Source: Catajapyx aquilonaris (taxonomy: Eukaryota). From it: 33,970 nt of DNA. The notes under the pieces were generated by a model. The model did not search any database. It was not told the origin of the DNA and was given only the letters and a program-made list of their open reading frames with translations. Where the stretch lies: positions 124,001 to 157,970 of the forward strand of contig KZ538018.1 of the NCBI GenBank assembly GCA_000934665.2. The letters run 5' to 3'. This document shows positions 3,001 through 30,558 of the stretch, one piece after another. Each line of letters starts with the position of its first letter. Within the stretch, counting starts at the first letter, position 1. A program made the translations under genes and the position numbers.

Positions 3001-4636
3001 TGGAGCATCCCTAAATTTTGCATGGTGGCTTCAAAAGTGTTGTTCCCAGGCTTTCTAAAATATTTTCCAGATAGTTATTTAGAGCATGGGGTGTGATAAG
3101 CCTCTTAGCTCGAGTAGCATTGGGCAGATATCATTAGAGCAAACTTTTCAAGCTTTGGCGACGGAATTTGTATAGAGCATCAGAGTTGTGTTTTTTTGCG
3201 AAATTTCACGCACCTGATGACCGGATTACCTCAATGAAAGCGACTCTGTTTGACACGCCGACATGCTAAAGTAGTCGGCCTTTAATTACGATCTGAAAAC
3301 ATTTGCATGATCATTGAGCGATGTTAATTTATTAATTACGACCGTTTCTCTCTGGGTAATTGCCTTGTTTGTTACGTCTTATGACGCACGACATGGCGCC
3401 GAAAATATTATTTTTCGCATGGAGCCCACGACTAAAAAAAAAAAAAGATACAAAACCTGGTTGGGGTCAGACACAGACGGTTCGTTTCTAAGTGTGTTTA
3501 TCTGGAAAAAAGATCTTGTTTTGGGGTTGTCGGTGTTTTGAAGAGTCGCTGCCACCCATTAAGTTAGCTTCGGTTAGAATCTTTCTTTCTCTCTCTCTGT
3601 CTGACAAGCTGACTTTTCGGGGGCTCTATGAAGGACAGGAGAAGGGCAGGGCCATGGCAGCAAAAGCATGGGCAGGTCTTCAAAAATCTCAAGTGTCGGA
3701 AGTCAGTAAAGCACCTTTTTCGTGACCTCACTTTATTCCGAGGCTTCTGAGCGCCGGACTATAGAACCATCAGAGAAGGAAGGAAAAGGGGCGGGAAATG
3801 AACAAGCTTCATTGTTGAGCACGTCAGGGATGGGAGCCATGACGTGTGTGTCTGAATCGCGCCCGATCAGGGTTGAACTATTTGAATAAAATTTTTAATA
3901 ATGAAATAACCACAATAATCAAACAGTAAATAGCGTAACATCCTAATTGTTATGAAAATTATTGGAGTACATTTGGCGTAATATTATGCCAAAAATAAAT
4001 AATGGCGCATTATTATCACATCGCCATAAATAATACTCTACAGAATGAAAGTTAATAAATGCGAAAACTTTCCATATAAAATGTGAAATGTAATATTTGG
4101 GGCATGGAGCTTATTTTAGGCTCCGTTTTTTTTTCTAGACTTTTTTTTCGGGACGGTGCGGTGTGGAAGCGTTACATGCACCTTTTTGTACCGTGGTCTA
4201 ATTTCGGTGTCATCTCATAGAAGAACCACGCCTCCTCTCAGGAGAGCTTTTGAAAGAGCGGGATCTCATCTGGTGTGTATAAAGGAAGTGGCAATCATGA
4301 ACTGGAAGCATAATGAGAGCGAGGCGGGCTTATTGATGTCGGAAATTGTGGCTTTAAATATATAACATGACCGCATTTTGCATAGATAGTGCCAGATATG
4401 TAAAGGCCTGAAATCACAGATTGCCAAGGTCACGAAAAGTGTGACTCCAGCTTCTTGTGATCATTAAGCCAATTACGTGTCGTCTTCCGCATTTTTTTTT
4501 CATTGAACGGGACTGTTTCCGAGCACTGATGTCATGTCAACAAAAACAATACTGAGAAACATCCTGAGTTCGACCTGAGGTCACGCACTTTTTTTTCCAG
4601 CTAGTGTCTGACGTTCCTCTCTTGCGTATTTTGCAG

Positions 4637-4887
4637 ATAGAGAATATCAGCTGGTGCCTGAGCTTCCTGAATGGACTCGGGGTGACCGTGGATGGCCTGC
4701 ATGCCAAAGACATCAGAGATGGGAACCTAAAGGCCATCCTAGGTCTCTTCTTCGCTCTGAGCCGTCACAAGCAGTACCAGAAGCAACAGCAGCTTCAGTA
4801 CCAGGAACGAGAGAAGATGAGACAACAGCACCAGCAGATACAACAGCATCAGTACCAACATGCAGTGACGCACGGAGACATGTCAAA
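4637..4887 (+). CDS. sick: NAV/sickie coding exon: C-terminal half of calponin-homology domain plus Gln-rich linker
   Basis: Acceptor ttttgcag|ATAGAG (phase 0), donor TCAAA|gtaagt (phase 2). Translates IENISWCLSFLNGLGVTVDGLHAKDIRDGNLKAILGLFFALSRHKQYQKQQQ...HGDMS(K). Confidence 0.95.
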
Positions 4888-5503
4888 GTAAGTCGGATGC
4901 TGTTGCAGGATAATTAGTGGTTTAGGAGGGGTATTGCAAATCCCCGTTATTTTTTGCGGGAGGTCAAGTGCGAGTTGAAGTAGGTCGTGATCATCTGTTG
5001 GAGGGCACAAGTGTTTTGCCCATGGGATATACCGACCTTGCAATTATTACGGTTTCAGAACCCCGTCGGGTTTATTAATCACGTAGGAAGCATGCATAAG
5101 GCGGACAGTGGATGACCGCTCAGAAATTACGTTTCATATACACTCAGCATCCGTGATCAGCCAATTACATTTCCTTGTAATTACAGCCGATAATTTAATT
5201 TGCTACATGTGCGTTATAAAATCATCTGTAGGACGACATAATTATGTGTTGTCTGGACTCGCAATGATTTGGCACCCTAATTGTAAAGCTAGGCGTCTCT
5301 TTATTTTCTTTAAATCAATTTTGTCGGTATGGTATGATACACAGGTGTACTGTACATATCCTGTGTAGCCTACTAGACTGCAAAATATCTACGTAAAAAT
5401 GCATAGATCTACTTGGCAGATAGTAGCAAATCTGAGAGTCATTGAGCTCACGAGAGGCAAAAAAAAAATGCACATGAGAGGTGCATTTACATCCACGCAT
5501 GCA

Positions 5504-8500: not shown

Positions 8501-10279
8501 TGTGTAATTAAAGGGGCAGTGCGTATAAGTCAGAAAGTGACATGATAGGTCATGCACGTGTCAGGTGCTCAAACTTCTCGTGGGATAATAAGCTCTCTCG
8601 GTATAACTTCACATGTCACTCTGTTTTTTTAGGATTTTTGATATGACTGTGACCATTTCTTAAAGTCAATTACACCCCCAGTACGCTCCAAATACGCCCC
8701 AGAAAAGTCGATTCGGAAATTCCACTCCTTCTGAAAAAAAAATCCGGTTAGCGATAGGAGACTATCGCTACCAATTCCGCTAGACTGAACCTCAATAACA
8801 TCTGCTCCACTGGATTTTTATTCAACTGAATGTCACTCCAGGCTCCGAAATAGTTGAATTTTTCTGCAGCCTATCCTTATAGGAGCGTGGCTGCCTCTAA
8901 TTAAACTCTTCACAAAAGGTGCTTACATTTCTAGAGGGCATATTCGTGTACAGCTCCCCGCCACTTTGATTGGATAAAAAAAAAGAGGCAGACCAGGTGC
9001 AAGCACCTTGTAAACTGCTACCTGTTTTTCGTGCATGCTCCGTTACGGATTTAGAACCGCGATAGGGACGCCCGGTTCATAGAATCTGTAGGATCACAGC
9101 TTCACGCACGTTCAAAGAGCGTTTTCTAGTAAATCCGGAGGTCAGGCGAACAGAGAAGGGAAGGTTTGGTCTTTGAAGAGGAAACTGGGTGTGAAAGGAA
9201 GGCTCTTCGTGATGGAGGCTCGTTGCCATCCCCCCCTCCTCATCCCTCCGGAGATTTCCTGTCAAAGCCAGGAAAAGGCAGACAGCTGGCAACCTCATGA
9301 GGAATGAAGGCTTCAGTAACGAGAGATTAGCTGGCTGAGCCTTTTCGATCATCCATTTTCCGGAATATTTGGTGATTATTTTATAAGCCGTCTATATCCT
9401 AGAAAGTCGACTCTGCGAGACCGGTGCGGTCACTCCAAGGCCATACAGATGCTACCAACTGTACAAAAAAAGGCGGTCAATTCGACTATGATGCAAAACT
9501 TCAATAACTTGGCTGCTTATCCAGATGGAGAGTGCTCTGCAAGCGCGGTTTTCATTTTCAACTCGTTTCTCGTATTTGGCAATCTGTGGAGCATACCGGC
9601 TCTGCACAAATCCTTGGCTTCTGTAACCTTTTGCACAGTCATACTAATGTAGATATTAATTATTTGACGGCCTACTGCACGAATGAATTTGCAAACATTT
9701 CGGAGCGAATGAAAAATGCCTGGAAGCGGGCCTATTTCCGCACAAATGACATTGCAATGTTTCAAATCTCTTTGTTGTGCCGTACCTGCAAAACGAACCA
9801 TTCAGCTTGGTGATAAAACAAGCACAGGGGATTTTTTAAAAGGCATCTACACATTTACATGAAGTCGATTCAACCCTGGACAGCCCGAGGTGAAATATGG
9901 CTAATATGCAATTAGAAAGTCCAATAATACCAACGCCATACCTCATTGCAAAAGCTAGCCTCTGTGGGCATAACAGTTGGCGTGCGAACAAAGGGACAGC
10001 TGTGACCCGGATGAGGGTCCGCATAAAATACAAAAAAATAAAAGGAAGAAGGGGGGGAAAGAAAGGAAGGGGTCCATGAATAGTTCCCTCCTCGACAAGG
10101 GCAAAACAGGTTGGCCAGGTGATCCTCTGCAAGAAGAAGGGAGCGCTTGAAGTGCTCTCAGAAAAATTGGGCCATTTAATTTTCCACCGTGTGTCTGTGT
10201 GGTAGTAACGGGTGCCAAGAAATACGACCTAGACATGGTTTGAGGGCTGGACGCAGATTGGGTGTCCCTTATACACCCA

Positions 10280-10365
10280 GAGCGTGACGTGAGCACGTGT
10301 GGCTCACGTTCCTTTCCCGCTCACTTCAGTTCGTTCCAAGCTGGAGCCACGTGCGAGTCGCGTTT
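10280..10365 (+). promoter_or_regulatory. Putative internal core promoter for exon A
   Basis: TCAGTT at 10326-10331 matches the arthropod Inr consensus TCAKTY. AGTCG (DPE-like RGWYV) at 10356-10360 is one base off canonical spacing. CACGTG and TGACGT motifs cluster nearby. Confidence 0.45.
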
Positions 10366-10447
10366 TGTTCTCGGTTGGGGCTGGATCACTCACTCAGAGC
10401 ATCAATCTGTCGGATGTCTGTTTCGGTTTAAAGCCCCGTGTGCACAA

Positions 10448-10512
10448 ATGGGGAATAGCAATTCTTCAGGGGAAATCAGGAGCCAGCCTACATCTCCATC
10501 TGATCTCAGAAG
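10448..10512 (+). CDS. sick: Candidate alternative first coding exon A (MGNSNSSGEIRSQPTSPSDLR-R), N-myristoylation consensus
   Basis: ATG at 10448, 65 nt (21 codons + 2), donor AGAAG|gtaaca. Phase 2 matches the acceptor at 11139. TCAGTT initiator-like motif about 120 nt upstream. Confidence 0.65.
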
Positions 10513-10564
10513 GTAACATTGAGTTCATTAATTTAATAACAAATCCCTCTGAGGAAATATATAG

Positions 10565-10605
10565 GTTGGTTGCCAGCATGCCAGGATACCAATGTGTCCA
10601 CCCTG
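10565..10605. mobile_element. Truncated relative of the 17396 MITE (right-end remnant)
   Basis: GTTGGTTGCCAGCA...GATACCAAT matches the MITE interior at 17451-17477 and is followed by GTGTC-CACCCTG-TA. Confidence 0.6.
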
Positions 10606-11138
10606 TACAGTACAACACAATGGTCAGTGTGACGGTTTTGCATTTCGCGTCTTGTTTATTTTTTTGTGACGAGAACAACTGGGTGTGTCTGACTGCAAAA
10701 ATATTCGTTGCAATTGCCTGGAGTTCATTGCCAGTAAAAATTTTACTGGCAAGGAAAGGATATTGCCGGAAGCTCGTTGGCGGAGTTATTGCTTGAAGGA
10801 GCCTGTAAGAACCAGTAGTAAGACGTTATACGTCTTCGTATATAAGTTATTATTGGGGTAGAGGGGCGTGAGATCTGGGGGAAAAAAAGGATATGCCACC
10901 AAGTTTGACAAAAGAGTGTGACCAAAATAACATCGTATAGGGACGTGTTGAAGCAGATTTTTTTTTGGTTCTCAAACTTGGTCTGTTTTCCAACAATTTT
11001 TTGGGGGGTAGGGTAATTAGAGACCAGCTATTTCCTCGAGTGATGGATATTGAAGGGTAATATGATATATGTCCTTGTGAATGTTATTGCCATGTTTCTG
11101 AACTAATTTTCCTGTTTTTGTTTACTCTTTTTTTTAAG

Positions 11139-11266
11139 GTTACCAGCCCCGTTCAACAAGCATGGAGCCACCAGCATCCCCATGCCTTCTGGAAACGCCT
11201 CGAAACGCTCAAGTCTGGATAAGACCAAGCTGGCATCATCGATTACCAACACCCCTTCCTATCAAG
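11139..11266 (+). CDS. sick: NAV/sickie coding exon (LPAPFNKHGATSIPMPSG...TPSYQ)
   Basis: Long polypyrimidine tract then taag|G, donor CAAG|gtattt. 128 nt, phase 2 in and phase 1 out, open frame. The junction gives MSKLPAP, resembling the segment after the CH domain in NAV proteins. Absent from the ORF track. Confidence 0.88.
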
Positions 11267-14200
11267 GTATTTATTTTGGGCAACATCTCATGTAATGAAA
11301 CTCGCATCTCGTTTGTCGCCGATTTGTGAACCGCTACAGATAACAGCTTCCCCCCCTCATTGTCCTCACCTACATGGGTTTTTAGTACATATGCGTGCAC
11401 ATCCCCCTCTCTGCACTTCATTAAAGCTGTTCATGGACATCCAATTTGGCTGGGGCGAAATTGAAATCCGGGTACGGGAGAGAGGAATACTAACGAGCAT
11501 GCCTGCCATGCTTATGTCGACATGTTATGAACACCGAGGGGAAAAAATCGCAATTTTTTTGCATATTCATCTGACACTGTCTTAGATTTTGAAGAGGACT
11601 TGAATAATGCCAAATAATTCGTGGAAAGCGCCGAATTATTCATGGAATAAATGAGCATATTTTATCATCAATTATGCATCCGGATCCTGAATTATTTTGC
11701 GAATAATGTCTAGGTACACGCAGGCCGAAAAGACGATTTCAGTTGAGATTTTTTGGGGGACAGTCCACTGTGTACATGTTACAACTGTCAAATTTTTTTA
11801 TTTGGGACTTTTCGGCGAATTTCCCTGGAGTTTTTCTATATCTAGCCAAATATGTGGCCACCTCTCATAAAATTGTTCAATTACCTCTCACAATTATGCC
11901 ACCGCCAAAGCCATTGTTTTCATCCTTCAAGAGCACAGTGATCAACACGGAAGGAGACTTTGAGGGTCCGGTAATCACGTCGGAAATCTCTAGGTCTCAT
12001 TAGAGCACATCCCCAGAATGAGCTCTAGGGAGGGAAGAAAATAATCCCTTGCTTTGGCCATGGTCCGCTGTTTGACAATTCTAATGCCATCTACCAAGGG
12101 CGGAGGAGGGGGCCAACAACCTCGTCAGCTGCTCCTCTTTTTTGGAGGGGGTATACATAGAGAGTGGGGGAGTCCCTACTAACTATAGGATACAGGCTGA
12201 TAACGCCCACTCAGCACCATCCCTTTTCCGCCACTGTCAACACTGTCGAGCTTAGTTTGCTCTCCGGATTACATTCGCGCACCTGATAGACTGCTGGGCG
12301 GCGATAGTACTTTTCCCTGGTGGCTAGCCTGGGGGAGGCTTTTGTTTAATCATGGAGGTTGACAGTGGCTGGCAGGATGCAGGTGGATCTATGATGGTCT
12401 AGTTTGGGAGGGTATATGATTATTGGAGTGTTGGCAACGCTGGCTTACATTTTCCTTTTGAAAGATTTTTTCTTTTGGGTCGAACTGGGGTGGGGATGGG
12501 GGAATAATTGCGAAGGGGGACGCCGATGGCAGACGGCGTGGCGCCATCGCCAGTAAGAGGGGGAAGCCCCCCTAAATTGAACTAGCCAAGGTTGACGATA
12601 CTTCCTTCGGTTTTTTTTAACAGAAAAAAAAGAAGTTCACGACACTCCTTACTCTCAGGAGATGTTGTGAACCCATAATGTTCTCGGATTAACTTGACTC
12701 TCTTGCTTCGACAAATTCTCAAAGCTTCCTTTGTCGTCTTAATTAAGGCTGATCCTCCTCGTTACCCTGTCTTTATGCAGTGGCACAGCCACGCCATTTG
12801 CGAGTCAAGTTTCTCCCGGTAATTTCTGTAAACTGCAAAGGACGTGGTGAGAGCATCACTGGTAGCAGACTTTGAGGTGAAACATCAAGGGACCTGTGGT
12901 GGGGGGAACTAGACGAAAAGATGAGGAATCCGTGTTCCGCGATGTCAAACCTATCAGTTTACTCTATCAAAGTTGATGCTAGACTGATCAAACTATGGAA
13001 CCCAGCGGCTATGAGAGGATTGATGGACAGCATGAGTTTATAATATCAAGCAGCCATACTATATGAATTTAAAATTACTTTCTCCCGATAGGTCGTGACA
13101 TCTTATATGAAACGTGATTGAAATTTGGACACTTTTCATGTAGTAAACAAGCTGGCTTTGAAGTTTAGTATTCGCCACCTGCTAAAATCTATGCGGGATA
13201 TATAGAGATGTCAAAAGCTCTTTGGGTGAGGATCGCATTAATCTAGGCTTCTGATAAGCCCTTTTGCATGTGCAAAGGCTTCCGTAATTAACACAACCTA
13301 GGCGTTCGGTCCCTGACTCGTAATTAGTACGTGCTCGATATTTAAGAGAACAACAACTCCAGCAATCATTCATAGGATTATCGACTGTGAAATTGAGCCA
13401 CGTCACACCCACGATGATTCTAAGCTTAATTACACGTTTTTGGCATAATGTAAGAAGCTTCCAGTCGTAAATTATCAATTCAGATGCACCTCTTGAGACA
13501 GCCAACAGTGATTAAAATTCATGCGCTGCTGCTGCTTACTATTAAGACAATTTCCAACCCCTTCGAAGAAAACCTGGTGTAACATGGAATATGTTCCTTA
13601 TTGGAGCCAATATAGTTTAATTAAGAGTGGAACAGCTGAGGGGACATCAGGAGAGGCGTTTATTGGACGCCACCTTGGCACTAGAGGTGCTTTTTTTTCT
13701 CCCTCCCCCAACCATTTTGCTTTTTGCATTTTCCCCCCCTTTGTCCTGTCTTGCAGAGAAGGGGACCCCGGAATTTAATTTCCTACCATCACTGACCCAG
13801 CTACCGGAGAAGGGAGATCCTTTTATTGGATTTTTCAGAACCAGGGAGGGAGATAGAACCGAAACAGAAGGTTAAAAAAGAAAATATCGACATGGCCGAC
13901 TTTTTATGCTGCAATTTGTGCTCTTTCTGGAGGGGGGGGGGGGTTCAGGAATATTGGCTTGACACTTATTAGTTTCTGCAAGTGGGGGAACATCCATGTG
14001 GGTGTAACATCTAGGAGATATTGTCCCAAAAAAAATCCATTTGGAACAACTGGCTCAGTAATGCAATTAGCACATTTTTAAATATAAAAATTGACAAAAA
14101 ATTTGAATCAGTTTGAAAAAATTTGACCCAAACTTCAGCTGAATTTTTTGAGAGGTTGGATTATTATTCAAAAGTTGGATAGAATTTTTTGGGAAAAATC

Positions 14201-26599: not shown

Positions 26600-26732
26600 G
26601 TCCCCAGTTGAAAACTACGTCAGCAAGTAGCTCCAGGTCAACAAGTCCAGCCAATGGTGGTGCCCAGTCCTTGATTCCGGCGCCCAGAAGCGGCGCCAGA
26701 ACTTCGCTCAACGAAAAACACATTGGTTCCAG
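26600..26732 (+). CDS. sick: NAV/sickie coding exon (GPQLKTTSASSSRSTSP...QSLIPAPRSG...IGSR)
   Basis: Acceptor ttgtttcag|GT, donor CCAG|gtaata. 133 nt, phase 1 in and phase 2 out. Ser-rich with an SLIP motif. Confidence 0.88.
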
Positions 26733-28864
26733 GTAATATTTCCCATCATCAATATTTATTTTTAAATATTTTTAAAAGCTTCGCACGCTTTTGTAGAATA
26801 AAAGGGGGGGTTCTAAAGCTCCAAAGGCGAGNGGGCAATATAGGGGATGGTTTGGATATGGCAGGGTCGTATGTACAAATGGACTGTTTTAGGATGGGTG
26901 TATTGTAGGAAGGGAGAGCAAGTGCTGGGGTAACGGAATACCGTTACACTTCCCACTCGCATGCTCCAATTTGGAATGATTTGGTCCAATCAAGCGCTTG
27001 TGATTGGCACGAACTCTCCAATGGAACTAGGAGGACTAATGGGATTTGTTTTGAAGCCTGTTCTAGTCGATCGGGGGACGAATTTTTCACGCTTGACTTA
27101 TTCGCGCGAGTTGCACTTCTCTCTCCATCGGATTTTTAATTTATCGCTTGTTTTTTTCACGTCCAATAAATCAATACTACATCATGCGTGAATTTTTCAA
27201 AAAAACAAAACTGTTATGAACTGCTGATGTAACATTTTCCCACTTTCGACAGTAGTTGTTACATAAAAAAAATTAAAGGAAATCTGTCATAGCAATTATC
27301 TTCGTGTGGATTGACAATTGGAAAACATTTTAACAAGAGTCTAATAATAAATTCATACCGTAGGCTATATTGTTTGAGACAAGTCCAGCTTGATGAACAA
27401 GGCAGGCATATTGTTATTGATGACAAAGTTGAGCCTATTAATTAGTGACACGAAGAGGTGATGAGTGTCATGAAAGAATGAAACAGGAGGGATGGATATA
27501 AATGACACAAACATGTCTATTATCCACGCATCAATTAACACCGGGAATTTAATACACCAATAAGCGTTGTTTACAGCTCGGCCTGTCTGTTGTTCAGGGT
27601 CGCTGACCTTTTGGGATAAAAATTTAAGCCCTTATTCATCACATGGAACCGCAACGATATTAAGAGCGAAACGCAATTTTTTGGTCGTAAATTCCTGCAA
27701 GATTTTTGTAGTACAGGGTGCTACAGGGAGTACTAATTAATATTGTTCAACCACTACTTTGAAGCAATCAGTTTCATACTTAATCAAAAATATTAGCTTT
27801 AAACATGAGATGTAATGATATTAATTGCATGGATTTCGAACAGTGCACCATCATGTATAGACAGGCTTAATTGCATCAATTGTGGATGGTATGCACTGTA
27901 CGGCTTGTTACTTTAGAGAAACGTGTTCACCCAGCCGCATACCCGGAATCTGCTGCATTATGCACTGTAACCTCAAGGAACTAAGCGCATTGCACTTCCA
28001 TCACTGTACAATCGTCAAGCAAGCAAGCTTGACGACATGAAACCTCTCAGCTAAAGTGACTGCAGAGATTCTGCAAAAAAAAAACTAAACAAAATCGTTA
28101 AAGCCGACATCGTGAATTCAAATTGTCTATTTCGCCATCCGGGAAGAGAGTGCGGACCTTTGCAAAAAAAAAATTTGAATATTCGGGAACTTGGATTCAT
28201 GCTAATAACAAAGCAGGAAGTATTTCACCGCGAGTTTTGAACCGTATCAGCAAAGTAGGAAATTCCGCAGAAAATTAATTACGGCAAAGTTTGTGGAGGT
28301 ATACCGAACATTCAGCGAACGGCGAGCAGGAAGATAAAATGACCTGACTCTGCAAGATAATTGTAATATCGATTTTAGCAAATTACGAAAATTGCGTTGT
28401 GGAATTTCAGCAGGAATGTTAATTGGTAGAGGACACAACTCTATAGGATAGGCGCGTTAGAAATGAACTTTTAAGAGTTATTACTGAAATGTATATATTG
28501 AAGGCCAACATTTTTAAAGAGGCCTATGAGAGCAGTTAGGCTCCAACGGTTCGTAATTTACCAAAAAAAAAGAGCGATAAAAGTGAATGTGAATGAGCAT
28601 GTCTTTCGCCTGACTAGAGTAAGTGCTCTCATTTGAAGTTTTAAAAGCGAGATCCGTGGCGCCACAGCTTTCAATAGCTTTGCCTTGATGACGCCATGTG
28701 ATGAGAGAAATGCCCAATTTCTTCGGGCTCTTATCACCGGAAATCTACAGGGTGGCCCAAGGGTGGGCTTAAAAGTTTGTTCACCTCAGCAACCACTTTA
28801 AATAGGCATTAATTTCTTCTTCTTTTAAAATTGATGAACTTAATGGATGTTTTATTGTCGACAG

Positions 28865-29043
28865 GAACATTAGTGGTCAGCAAACGACTGGCAGGACATC
28901 ACTCAGGGCACCGGGGTCGGCGCAGGTGAATTCTGGTATTACATATGCGCCTGCAGCTCCTGGTCAACAAGGTGGGAAGAATTCTATGCTGGACAAGTTC
29001 AAGTTCTTCAACGCCAAGGACAAAGGAGAGCGGAACAAAAGTG
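28865..29043 (+). CDS. sick: NAV/sickie coding exon containing SMLDKFKFFN
   Basis: Acceptor tttattgtcgacag|G (phase 2), in frame with ORF 28926, donor AGTG|gtgaga (phase 1). SMLDKFKFFN resembles the conserved SMLEKLKLFN segment of vertebrate NAVs. Confidence 0.88.
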
Positions 29044-29109
29044 GTGAGATATCCCATAACAACCTAAAGAAAATGACACGGAATATTAACTCGACTCTTT
29101 CCTATACAG

Positions 29110-30101
29110 GTTCGGGTGTGTCGAAACGTACCTCCAGTTCCAGCGGGTTCAGCTCGGCTCGCTCGGAAAGAAGTGATTCGTCGACAAGCCTGTGCAGCGA
29201 GAGCAAGCCGGCGGTGGTAGAGACAAAGACTGAACCTGTTCAGACGGTGGTGAACGACAACCTGAACGTCCACAACGGTCCAAAGCCATCCTCAGGGACA
29301 AGGTCGCTTCGAAGCAAGGTCGGAAAAGTGTCCAATGCCCGCGACTCGAAGCAGAACTCTCCCAAGTCGTCCAGGAAGGAAGAGAGCAGCAGGCATTCGT
29401 CCAAGAGCACAGGAACCATGAAGGAGGCAAAGCACGCAAAGGACGAGAAGAACAAGGCCAGCGAGGACAGCCCGAAGAAGAAGCACGAGAAGATCTCATA
29501 CAACCCGCCTCTGGAGGTGGACGCCCCGGTGAAGCAGTCCAAGATATCCAGCCTCTCAACCAGACAGCATCAACGAAACAGTGTGATCGAGGAACCGTCT
29601 GTGTCGCCTCCTCCTCCAGCACCTGGGTCGGGCATACCCAAACCGACGGCTGCAGTCAAAGGAACAAGCCAGGCGCCTAAGGCGTCGTCGGTGCCGCCGG
29701 TGTCCAAGGAGGAATCGGAGTCGGACACTAACAGGATGGCCATGTCGTCCAGGGGCAGCAGCAGTGCGTCGCTACCCAGGGTGCAGAAGCAGCTGGGGCG
29801 GCCCAGGGGCGAGGAGGCCATCAGCGTGGCCATGGTGTCGCCGATGCCCAAGGAGAAGGGCGAGTGTGTGGCGCCCAGTGAGAGCGGGTCCAACATAAGT
29901 GAGTCCAGCCACTCCAACTCCAACGGACCATCCAACTCCAACTCCTCTGAGAGCAGCGTTATATACAAACCGGGTTCTGAGAGCAGTGCCAGTGATATAT
30001 GCAAGCCCCTCTTAGAGAAAGTGGGCTCCACCAAAGTTGGAGAAGGTGTCACCACTACGCCTACTAGAAGGGACAGTGGCACTCCTGATCAGTCAGAAAA
30101 G
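29110..30101 (+). CDS. sick: Large Ser/Lys/Pro-rich NAV/sickie coding exon (KRTSSSSGFSSARSE, SGIPKPTAAVKG, VAMVSPMP)
   Basis: Acceptor ctttcctatacag|GT. 992-nt open frame with GC-rich third positions. Best phase-0 donor is AAG|gtcaat at 30102, which matches the phase-0 acceptor at 31176. The 3' boundary is less certain because this donor is weak. Confidence 0.88.
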
Positions 30102-30104
30102 GTC

Positions 30105-30173
<69 letters not shown>
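30105..30173. repeat. (AAT)23 microsatellite at the 5' end of the intron
   Basis: 69 nt of perfect AAT repeats starting at intron position +4. Confidence 0.97.
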
Positions 30174-30174
<1 letters not shown>

Positions 30175-30558
30175 GGCTAAAATTTTGTGAAAATACATTA
30201 TGGAGAGAGGTTCAATATGGACAGATTTCAAGCATTTTCCAATGTCTCATATTACGTTATAATGCCAGGAGTTGCTACTCTGTGAAAGCTAAGTGCTGTT
30301 ATTTCTATGGATAGCAGGCTACTGGAAAACTATCCAAATGGACCTACTGTTAAAAATAATAGGTCAAAATGCATTTGTGTAGGATAAAATTGTGACTGTC
30401 CTTATTATGCATTGACTTTCTCCTTTGTATTTAATGAAAATCCACATTCATTGAATTAACATCAAGATTTTCTCATTGATATTCTCAGAAGTCTTTGTAG
30501 TATAGCCTACCAAACGAGGACAACTTTAAAAAAAAATTATATGATTTTATTGCACTCA

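Follow-up and report, generated by a model that had tools for sequence, protein, structure and literature searches.

By sequence comparison, the short open reading frame at 10448-10512 of the 33,970-nucleotide stretch of DNA analysed here (the window) is conserved coding sequence and a genuine exon of a navigator/sickie gene. We consider it likely that this mini-exon serves as an alternative first exon and yields a navigator that lacks the CH domain and carries a predicted myristoylated N-terminus. Expression in this species, the transcription start, the lipidation and a role at membranes are the parts of this explanation that we infer. A first-pass annotation had proposed the same exon from an initiator-like TCAGTT, the ATG at 10448, the phase-2 donor AG/GTAACA, a 626-nt intron and the acceptor at 11139, and each of these elements lies where it was placed. 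What carries the case further is the recurrence of the exon in insect proteins, its relation to the CH-containing models of the same insects and the pattern of constraint in its first residues.

A navigator/sickie gene in the window

Several exons place the window within a sickie/navigator orthologue that, judging from its protein matches, is crustacean-like and closest to decapod crustaceans. The large Ser-rich exon matches 22 proteins at E ≤ 0.001, the named ones being sickie, SICK or hypothetical, with the best matches in Cherax quadricarinatus (5.2e-20) and Portunus trituberculatus (2.3e-16); a second search with the same exon gave 32 representatives at E ≤ 0.001. The exons and the intron discussed below are as follows.

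4637..4887, plus strand: last CH-domain exon of the long isoforms; probable acceptor 4636/4637, donor AAA/GTAAGT in phase 2
10448..10512, plus strand: coding part of the proposed alternative first exon (mini-exon), aligning as an orthologue with the N-terminal 22-32 residues of sickie/NAV proteins from insects (27 distinct sequences)
10513..11138, plus strand: intron, from GTAACA to a pyrimidine tract and AAG
11139..11268, plus strand: exon 2, common, LPAPFNK...TSIPMP...KRSSLDK; acceptor in phase 2, donor G/GTATTT in phase 1
26600..26732, plus strand: exon 3, SSSRSTSP...SLIPAPR
28865..30101, plus strand: large Ser-rich exon, boundaries probable; acceptor GACAG/G, donor AAG/GTCAAT

The Pfam CH family is matched in the reading frame 4568-4891 over profile positions 58-108, the second half of the domain, with an E value of 9.6e-5. 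The score of 23 bits lies below the 26-bit cut-off because only these profile positions fall within the exon at 4637-4887. In its sequence, DGNLKAILGLFFALSRHKQ, this exon corresponds to the CH-domain end of Artemia and insect proteins, and a motif scan of the window did not locate an exon coding for the domain's first half. Exon 3 shares 61% identity with a Cherax quadricarinatus protein and matches an ant protein at 50% across 18 residues.

As read directly from the window, the ATG of the mini-exon (10448-10450) stands in the context ACAA-ATG-G and opens a frame of 21 codons, MGNSNSSGEIRSQPTSPSDLR. These are followed by AG (10511-10512), the first two bases of a split Arg codon, and then by GTAACA, which sets the donor at 10512/10513 in phase 2. 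The intron of 626 nt runs to a strong acceptor at 11138/11139, composed of a long pyrimidine tract with AAG; the initial G of the next exon completes the AGG (Arg) codon, after which the frame continues as LPAPFNKHGATSIPMPSG... to the donor at 11268/11269. The CH exon (ending at 4887) and the mini-exon (ending at 10512) both close in phase 2, so either can splice to 11139. Upstream of the ATG, the frame of the mini-exon is open for 68 codons (10244-10447, within the reading frame 10244-10516), and no second in-frame ATG occurs between the stop at 10241-10243 and position 10448. Neither a Pfam family in the four reading frames that overlap or adjoin the mini-exon and its intron nor an Rfam family within 9500-11600 was detected.

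Downstream of the mini-exon, exon 2 has TSIP and exon 3 has SLIP, with PR after it, both in agreement with the four-residue SxIP pattern. In the sections of a 2023 review drawn on here (PMC9877351), the criteria for such motifs, which mediate EB-dependent tracking of microtubule tips, are [ST]-x-[IL]-P, a basic and non-acidic context and a disordered region. The nearest Lys to the TSIP of exon 2 lies 6 residues upstream, and the 9-residue basic-context rule may therefore fail there. T-[SA]-I-P-[LM]-P is the most conserved core of exon 2, and it may represent a putative EB-binding-like SxIP-type core, which we regard as a lead.

Three further observations concern the region around exon 3 and the large exon. 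The SLIP-A-P-R motif of exon 3 adjoins SSSRSTSP and has the counterpart SFIP in Cherax and insect proteins. An (AAT)n run at 30105-30175, directly after the probable donor at 30101/30102, reads as poly-Asn and is probably an intronic microsatellite. At least one N base at about 26780-26900, in the intron 3' of exon 3, appears as X in reading frames on both strands.

Conservation of the mini-exon

Four of the 22 large-exon matches begin MGNSGSS... or MGNTNSG..., continue with RSLP[NT]SPE and then run into a stretch that resembles exon 2 and carries TSIPLPA, preceded in two ants among the four by LPSPYNK. An insect N-terminal profile was built from these four N-termini and used to score 7999 candidates, of which 76 proteins matched at E ≤ 10. 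Thirty of the 76 begin M-G-N-[STAN]-x-[ST] and then carry the core RS.P[NT]SP, while the remaining 46 are CH-containing isoforms, partial models beginning within exon 2 or close to it, or genomic fragments. The 30 MGN proteins comprise 25 from named species and 5 genomic reading frames. We take the named species to represent four insect orders, with 13 Diptera, 5 Lepidoptera, 4 Coleoptera and 3 Hymenoptera. The Diptera with this start include four Drosophila species, Anopheles, Bradysia and Megaselia.

All 30 MGN proteins run into the orthologue of the exon at 11139. When the window exons are conceptually spliced, they align end to end with the insect MGN proteins through the blocks M-G-N-[ST]-x-S, R-S-[LQ]-P-[TN]-S-P, the junction Arg, LP[AS]P[FY]NK and T-S-I-P-[LM]-P. 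Outside the first six residues, RS.P[NT]SP is the most conserved block of the mini-exon peptide. Furthermore, six ant-like genomic reading frames (P0062, P0064, P0068, P0070, P0071 and P0072) read past the end of the exon as Arg-Tyr, which fits an AG/GTAY donor at the same place and in the same phase as that of the window's mini-exon.

Compared with the insect MGN isoforms, the window's exon has the same M-G-N-[STAN]-x-[ST] start and RS.P[NT]SP core, likewise lacks an N-terminal CH domain and ends at the junction to an exon of the form LP.P[FY].K...T[SA]IP[LM]P. Its length of 21 residues is similar to that of the beetle forms (22-23). It differs in a single substitution within the core, which reads R-S-Q-P-T-S-P against R-S-L-P-[NT]-S-P in insects (Gln for the Leu of RSLP), in having no basic RK.R cluster, and in one additional residue ahead of the junction. 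The gene itself is crustacean-like, its best named matches being decapods, whereas the named models found here with an MGN start are those of insects.

The match was weighed against the rest of the window. Among 470 ATG-started, stop-free 22-codon peptides taken from both strands and scored against the 27 distinct insect N-termini, the peptide at 10448 ranks first, with a mean global BLOSUM62 score of 48.5 against 25.6 for the next; the remaining peptides average 7.1 (sd 4.0), which gives a z of 10.4. None of 2000 composition-preserving shuffles of the peptide reaches its score (maximum 39.7). In a blind scan with an insect-only exon-2 HMM, the reading frame 11107-11292 ranks first of 1490 segments (E 3.3e-5). 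A search with exon 2 alone against proteins of 77-2000 aa yielded 7 candidates, none of which scored.

By local-alignment statistics, this short and Ser-rich peptide scores weakly. The blind HMMER scan with an exon-1 profile placed the mini-exon third among 1490 reading-frame segments (E 1.8, with an N-terminal match of 6 bits), behind two short unrelated frames that outscore it over 7 profile positions. BLASTP of the peptide against Anoplophora X2 left the N-terminal match unreported and returned only an unrelated internal SQPTSP (E 0.073). The case thus rests on the full-length, position-anchored match together with the neighbouring exon 2.

An MGN start was not found in Artemia X1-X4, in four Cherax models or in Portunus, nor in 30 further large-exon representatives that include Frankliniella (thrips), Meganyctiphanes, Halocaridina and a Penaeus cluster. 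Beyond these models, the survey for this start covered Holometabola, to which all named species with an MGN start belong. The first-pass annotation had suggested looking in related arthropods for a conserved MGNxxS mini-exon; this start occurs in annotated proteins of 25 insect species and is missing from the crustacean models examined. That annotation had also named a lack of conservation of the ATG-Gly, Ser6 and the donor as evidence against it; in insects, the ATG-Gly, Ser6 (Thr in one insect peptide) and the place of the donor are conserved.

The silence of the crustacean models, the loss of the basic cluster and the weak local scores in HMMER and BLASTP could also be read as signs of a relic or a chance look-alike that is no longer expressed in this species. 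Such a reading has to contend with an ATG, Gly2, Asn3, Ser6, RS.PTSP core and open frame that are all intact, with a GT donor at the homologous place and in the right phase, and with the first rank of the peptide among the 470. It must also explain why the mini-exon occupies the intron in which it would be expected, immediately 5' of the orthologous exon 2, and we give this reading hardly any credence. The absence of the MGN start from crustacean models may instead reflect incomplete models, and those of Artemia, Cherax and Portunus probably miss the MGN isoform.

A probable alternative first coding exon and its 5' end

In insects, the relation between the MGN peptide and the CH domain can be followed within single genes. 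Eight CH models that carry the motif YTDWAN (five from Bradysia, two from Megaselia and one from Vollenhovia) join the same exon-2 sequence as the MGN isoforms, and none of the eight contains the MGN peptide. Each MGN isoform of these three insects is the same as its CH siblings from the first residues of exon 2 onward. Anoplophora X1 has no YTDWAN but retains the end of the CH domain, LFFALSRHKQ, and it also runs into exon 2 with no MGN peptide. The peptide is likewise missing from the CH proteins of Pogonomyrmex and Fopius, where ...KQLQDMP leads directly into RLPSPYNK. Since CH models lack the MGN peptide and all 30 MGN proteins begin at its Met, the mini-exon behaves as an alternative first coding exon. 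From these models, we conclude that this is probably its role in the window as well, with a 5' end somewhere upstream of 10448. The CH-less isoform of the first-pass annotation agrees with the insect models, in which the mini-exon replaces the N-terminal CH sequence and does not occur together with it.

Taken alone, the letters of the window would also allow a cassette, since the stretch 10330-10512 is in frame, has an acceptor-like site and lies in a frame that is open from 10244. An internal cassette exon between the CH exon and exon 2 would place MGN inside the protein, where it would never be lipidated. A pyrimidine tract and CAG at 10329/10330 speak for this arrangement, as does the length of 183 nt, a multiple of three that preserves the frame between 4887 and 11139. 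The insect models argue the other way: the peptide is in none of the eight CH-motif models of three species, nor in Anoplophora X1, Pogonomyrmex or Fopius, and 30 of 30 MGN proteins begin at Met. Moreover, the 39 residues that a cassette would add 5' of the Met are rich in Trp, Cys and Phe and resemble nothing in the insect proteins. The ant-like genomic reading frame P0062 is likewise open for 97 residues upstream of MGN, in a sequence unrelated to that of the window, which indicates that open upstream frames occur without being coding. We regard a cassette as very unlikely.

For an alternative first exon, the 5' end has to be sought in the intron, where two features had a place in the proposed transcript.

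10326..10331, plus strand: Inr-like TCAGTT, proposed transcript start; the same bases are acceptor-like (pyrimidine tract and CAG/TT, 10329/10330)
10414..10431, plus strand: upstream out-of-frame ATG with a 5-codon reading frame, MSVSV, then a stop, in the proposed 5' UTR

The choice of TCAGTT as initiator finds no support, as the motif TCAGTY is present at 29 places in the window where 35 would be expected, which is chance level. By eye, there is no TATA near -30 of the proposed start, and a DPE-like AGTCG begins at +29 and not at +28, one base off register. The first-pass idea of a promoter that exchanges the CH domain for a lipid anchor thus stands in one respect, a first exon in place of the CH sequence in the insect models, and falls short in the other, the Inr motif being at chance.

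For a transcript starting at 10328, the upstream ATG at 10414 would reduce translation from the ATG at 10448. Two CACGTG E-boxes, at 10294-10299 and 10348-10353 and 54 bp apart, flank the Inr-like motif; CACGTG occurs 8 times in the window against 4.5 expected, a count that 5 of 100 shuffles reach. Either chance or a regulatory role in an internal promoter could account for the E-boxes.

The exon had been called hidden, a description that does not fit the insect record, in which the same start is publicly annotated in 25 named species, RefSeq isoforms included. Examples are sickie X5 of Bradysia coprophila (XP_037047958.1), sickie-like X2 of Vollenhovia emeryi (XP_011869325.1), neuron navigator 3 X2 of Anoplophora glabripennis (XP_018575253.1) and sickie X8 of Hyposmocoma kahamanoa (XP_026324177.1). 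Full-length insect MGN isoforms span 1558-1998 residues. According to precomputed annotations, Bradysia X5 (1822 aa) and the Megaselia isoform (1930 aa) contain AAA PF00004 together with PF23092 and PF25408, and Hyposmocoma X8 (1998 aa) contains only PF23092 and PF25408. Full-length MGN isoforms with these C-terminal families point to a complete navigator without the CH domain and not to a fragment.

Bradysia and Megaselia also annotate CH-less isoforms that begin 3-5 residues before exon 2 (MTNRQLP and MLTQNRQIP; P0151, P0164 and P0165). Such models take an internal Met at the end of the CH exon as their start, and they represent a second CH-less start, one without Gly2.

The predicted lipid signal and known systems

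N-myristoyltransferase substrates are described by the PROSITE-type pattern G-{EDRKHPFYW}-x(2)-[STAGCN]-{P}. Met-Gly-Asn starts are found in classical N-myristoylated proteins such as recoverin-type calcium sensors, Arf GTPases and calcineurin B, and Met-Gly-Asn-Ser-x-Ser starts are typical of proven substrates, for example the recoverin-type calcium sensors. The 28 mini-exon peptides (27 from insects and that of the window) all fit this pattern. Positions 1-3 are M-G-N throughout, which makes G2 and N3 invariant; Ser occupies position 6 in 27 of 28, with Thr in one, and positions 4, 5, 7 and 8 vary. The N-terminus of the window peptide, Met-Gly-Asn-Ser-Asn-Ser-Ser, accords with the M-G-x-x-x-S consensus that the first-pass annotation had recognized. 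Such a pattern of constraint matches a co-translational substrate of N-myristoyltransferase, and lipidation is predicted on this basis.

The residues that follow differ between insects and the window. The 27 insect peptides contain 4-8 Lys or Arg and 1-2 Asp or Glu, with a basic cluster R-K-x-R ahead of the core, and in Diptera and one moth also a Cys within RKCRS, which ants and beetles lack. The 4-8 basic residues of the insect peptides could provide an electrostatic membrane signal in addition to the lipid. With 2 Lys or Arg against 2 Asp or Glu, the window peptide has no net positive charge, and it has neither the basic cluster nor a Cys; it thus carries no second membrane signal in the form of a polybasic patch or a palmitoylatable Cys. 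Without the basic cluster, stable membrane tethering appears less secure in this species.

In the explanation that we favour, transcription would start in the intron between 4887 and 11139, and 10512 would be spliced to 11139 to give a navigator without the CH domain. The initiator Met would be removed and Gly2 myristoylated co-translationally by N-myristoyltransferase. The lipid would then sit about 30 residues ahead of the T-S-I-P core of exon 2, which is SxIP-type and EB-binding-like, and a fraction of the protein would be biased towards membranes. The core RS.P[NT]SP, which is rich in Ser and Pro and phospho-acceptor-like, would lie between the lipid site and the junction. A basic cluster precedes this core in insects, which would make a lipid-plus-charge switch plausible there; in the window its absence would leave membrane binding weaker or dependent on another partner.

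The mini-exon could also be used as a first exon while Gly2 stays unmyristoylated, or while the lipid has no role at membranes, with MGN...Ser kept for other purposes. Such purposes might be degradation through recognition of the N-terminal glycine, processing of the N-terminus, or a function of the phospho-acceptor-like RS.P[NT]SP, possibly as a site of the 14-3-3 type. This would sit well with a window peptide that has neither basic cluster nor Cys, with RS.P[NT]SP as the most conserved block past the first six residues and with the 14-3-3 family proteins that are named as navigator partners in the sections of PMC9877351 drawn on here. It is harder to reconcile with the fact that all 28 peptides have G2, N3 and a Ser or Thr at position 6, exactly what N-myristoyltransferase needs, while residues 4, 5, 7 and 8 are free to vary. 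The resemblance to the Met-Gly-Asn-Ser-x-Ser starts typical of proven substrates likewise tells against it, and we consider this alternative improbable.

A wider proposal is that the lipid-anchored navigator constitutes an ancient conserved isoform of Pancrustacea, common to four holometabolous insect orders and the crustacean-like genome, in which an internal promoter would exchange the actin-binding CH domain for a myristoyl-Gly, and the conserved phospho-acceptor core would act as a lipid-plus-charge switch between this lipid and the SxIP-type motif. We put this forward tentatively, as a reading that the sequence comparisons make possible and that we hold more doubtful than not. If true, the plasma membrane or presynaptic active zones would serve as the anchor for growing microtubule ends or for the C-terminal AAA+ module. 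This would account for those membrane-linked roles of navigators that the CH-containing isoforms examined to date leave unexplained.

Under the sickie gene number CG43720, only an unrelated paper came up. No paper that joins sickie and myristoylation was found, and neuron navigator or unc-53 appears with myristoylation only in co-occurrences that seem incidental from their titles and abstracts. The first-pass annotation had known of no described myristoylated navigator, and within this literature on sickie, neuron navigator and unc-53 (the latter two at the level of titles and abstracts) none was found. The terms myristoyl, palmitoyl and lipid have 0 occurrences in the 2023 review PMC9877351, as have isoform and myristoyl in PMC9499536. 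In the sections of the review that concern us here, only the CH-containing Sickie isoforms B and J are compared (PMC9877351). What is new is the MGN exon in a crustacean-like navigator gene; the same start is already annotated in insects and seems to have gone undiscussed in papers.

During cell migration and axon growth, navigators connect microtubule tips with actin and membrane dynamics, and how they meet the membrane is presented as an open question in the sections of PMC9877351 used here. A CH-less isoform that keeps an invariant predicted N-myristoylation signal in a crustacean-like genome as well as in flies, beetles, moths and ants would offer a simple and testable route to the membrane. 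Because Drosophila species carry the MGN start, such tests are possible in the fly.

Navigators without a CH domain exist elsewhere, namely vertebrate NAV1 and a shorter Nav2 transcript that stays intact in a hypomorphic mouse, as described in the parts of PMC9877351 consulted. Like the MGN isoforms, these lack the N-terminal CH domain and keep the SxIP-bearing disordered region, and the C-terminal module is present in full-length insect isoforms. They differ in that no lipid signal is described at their N-termini in those parts of the review (PMC9877351). NAV1, furthermore, lost the CH domain as a gene and not through an alternative promoter. With recoverin-type calcium sensors, Arf GTPases and calcineurin B, the mini-exon peptide has in common Gly2, an uncharged position 3, Ser6 and no Pro7. 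Those myristoylated proteins are small and folded, and their lipid is often sequestered and released by a switch, whereas the predicted signal of the navigator would stand at the head of a long disordered region in a large cytoskeletal protein.
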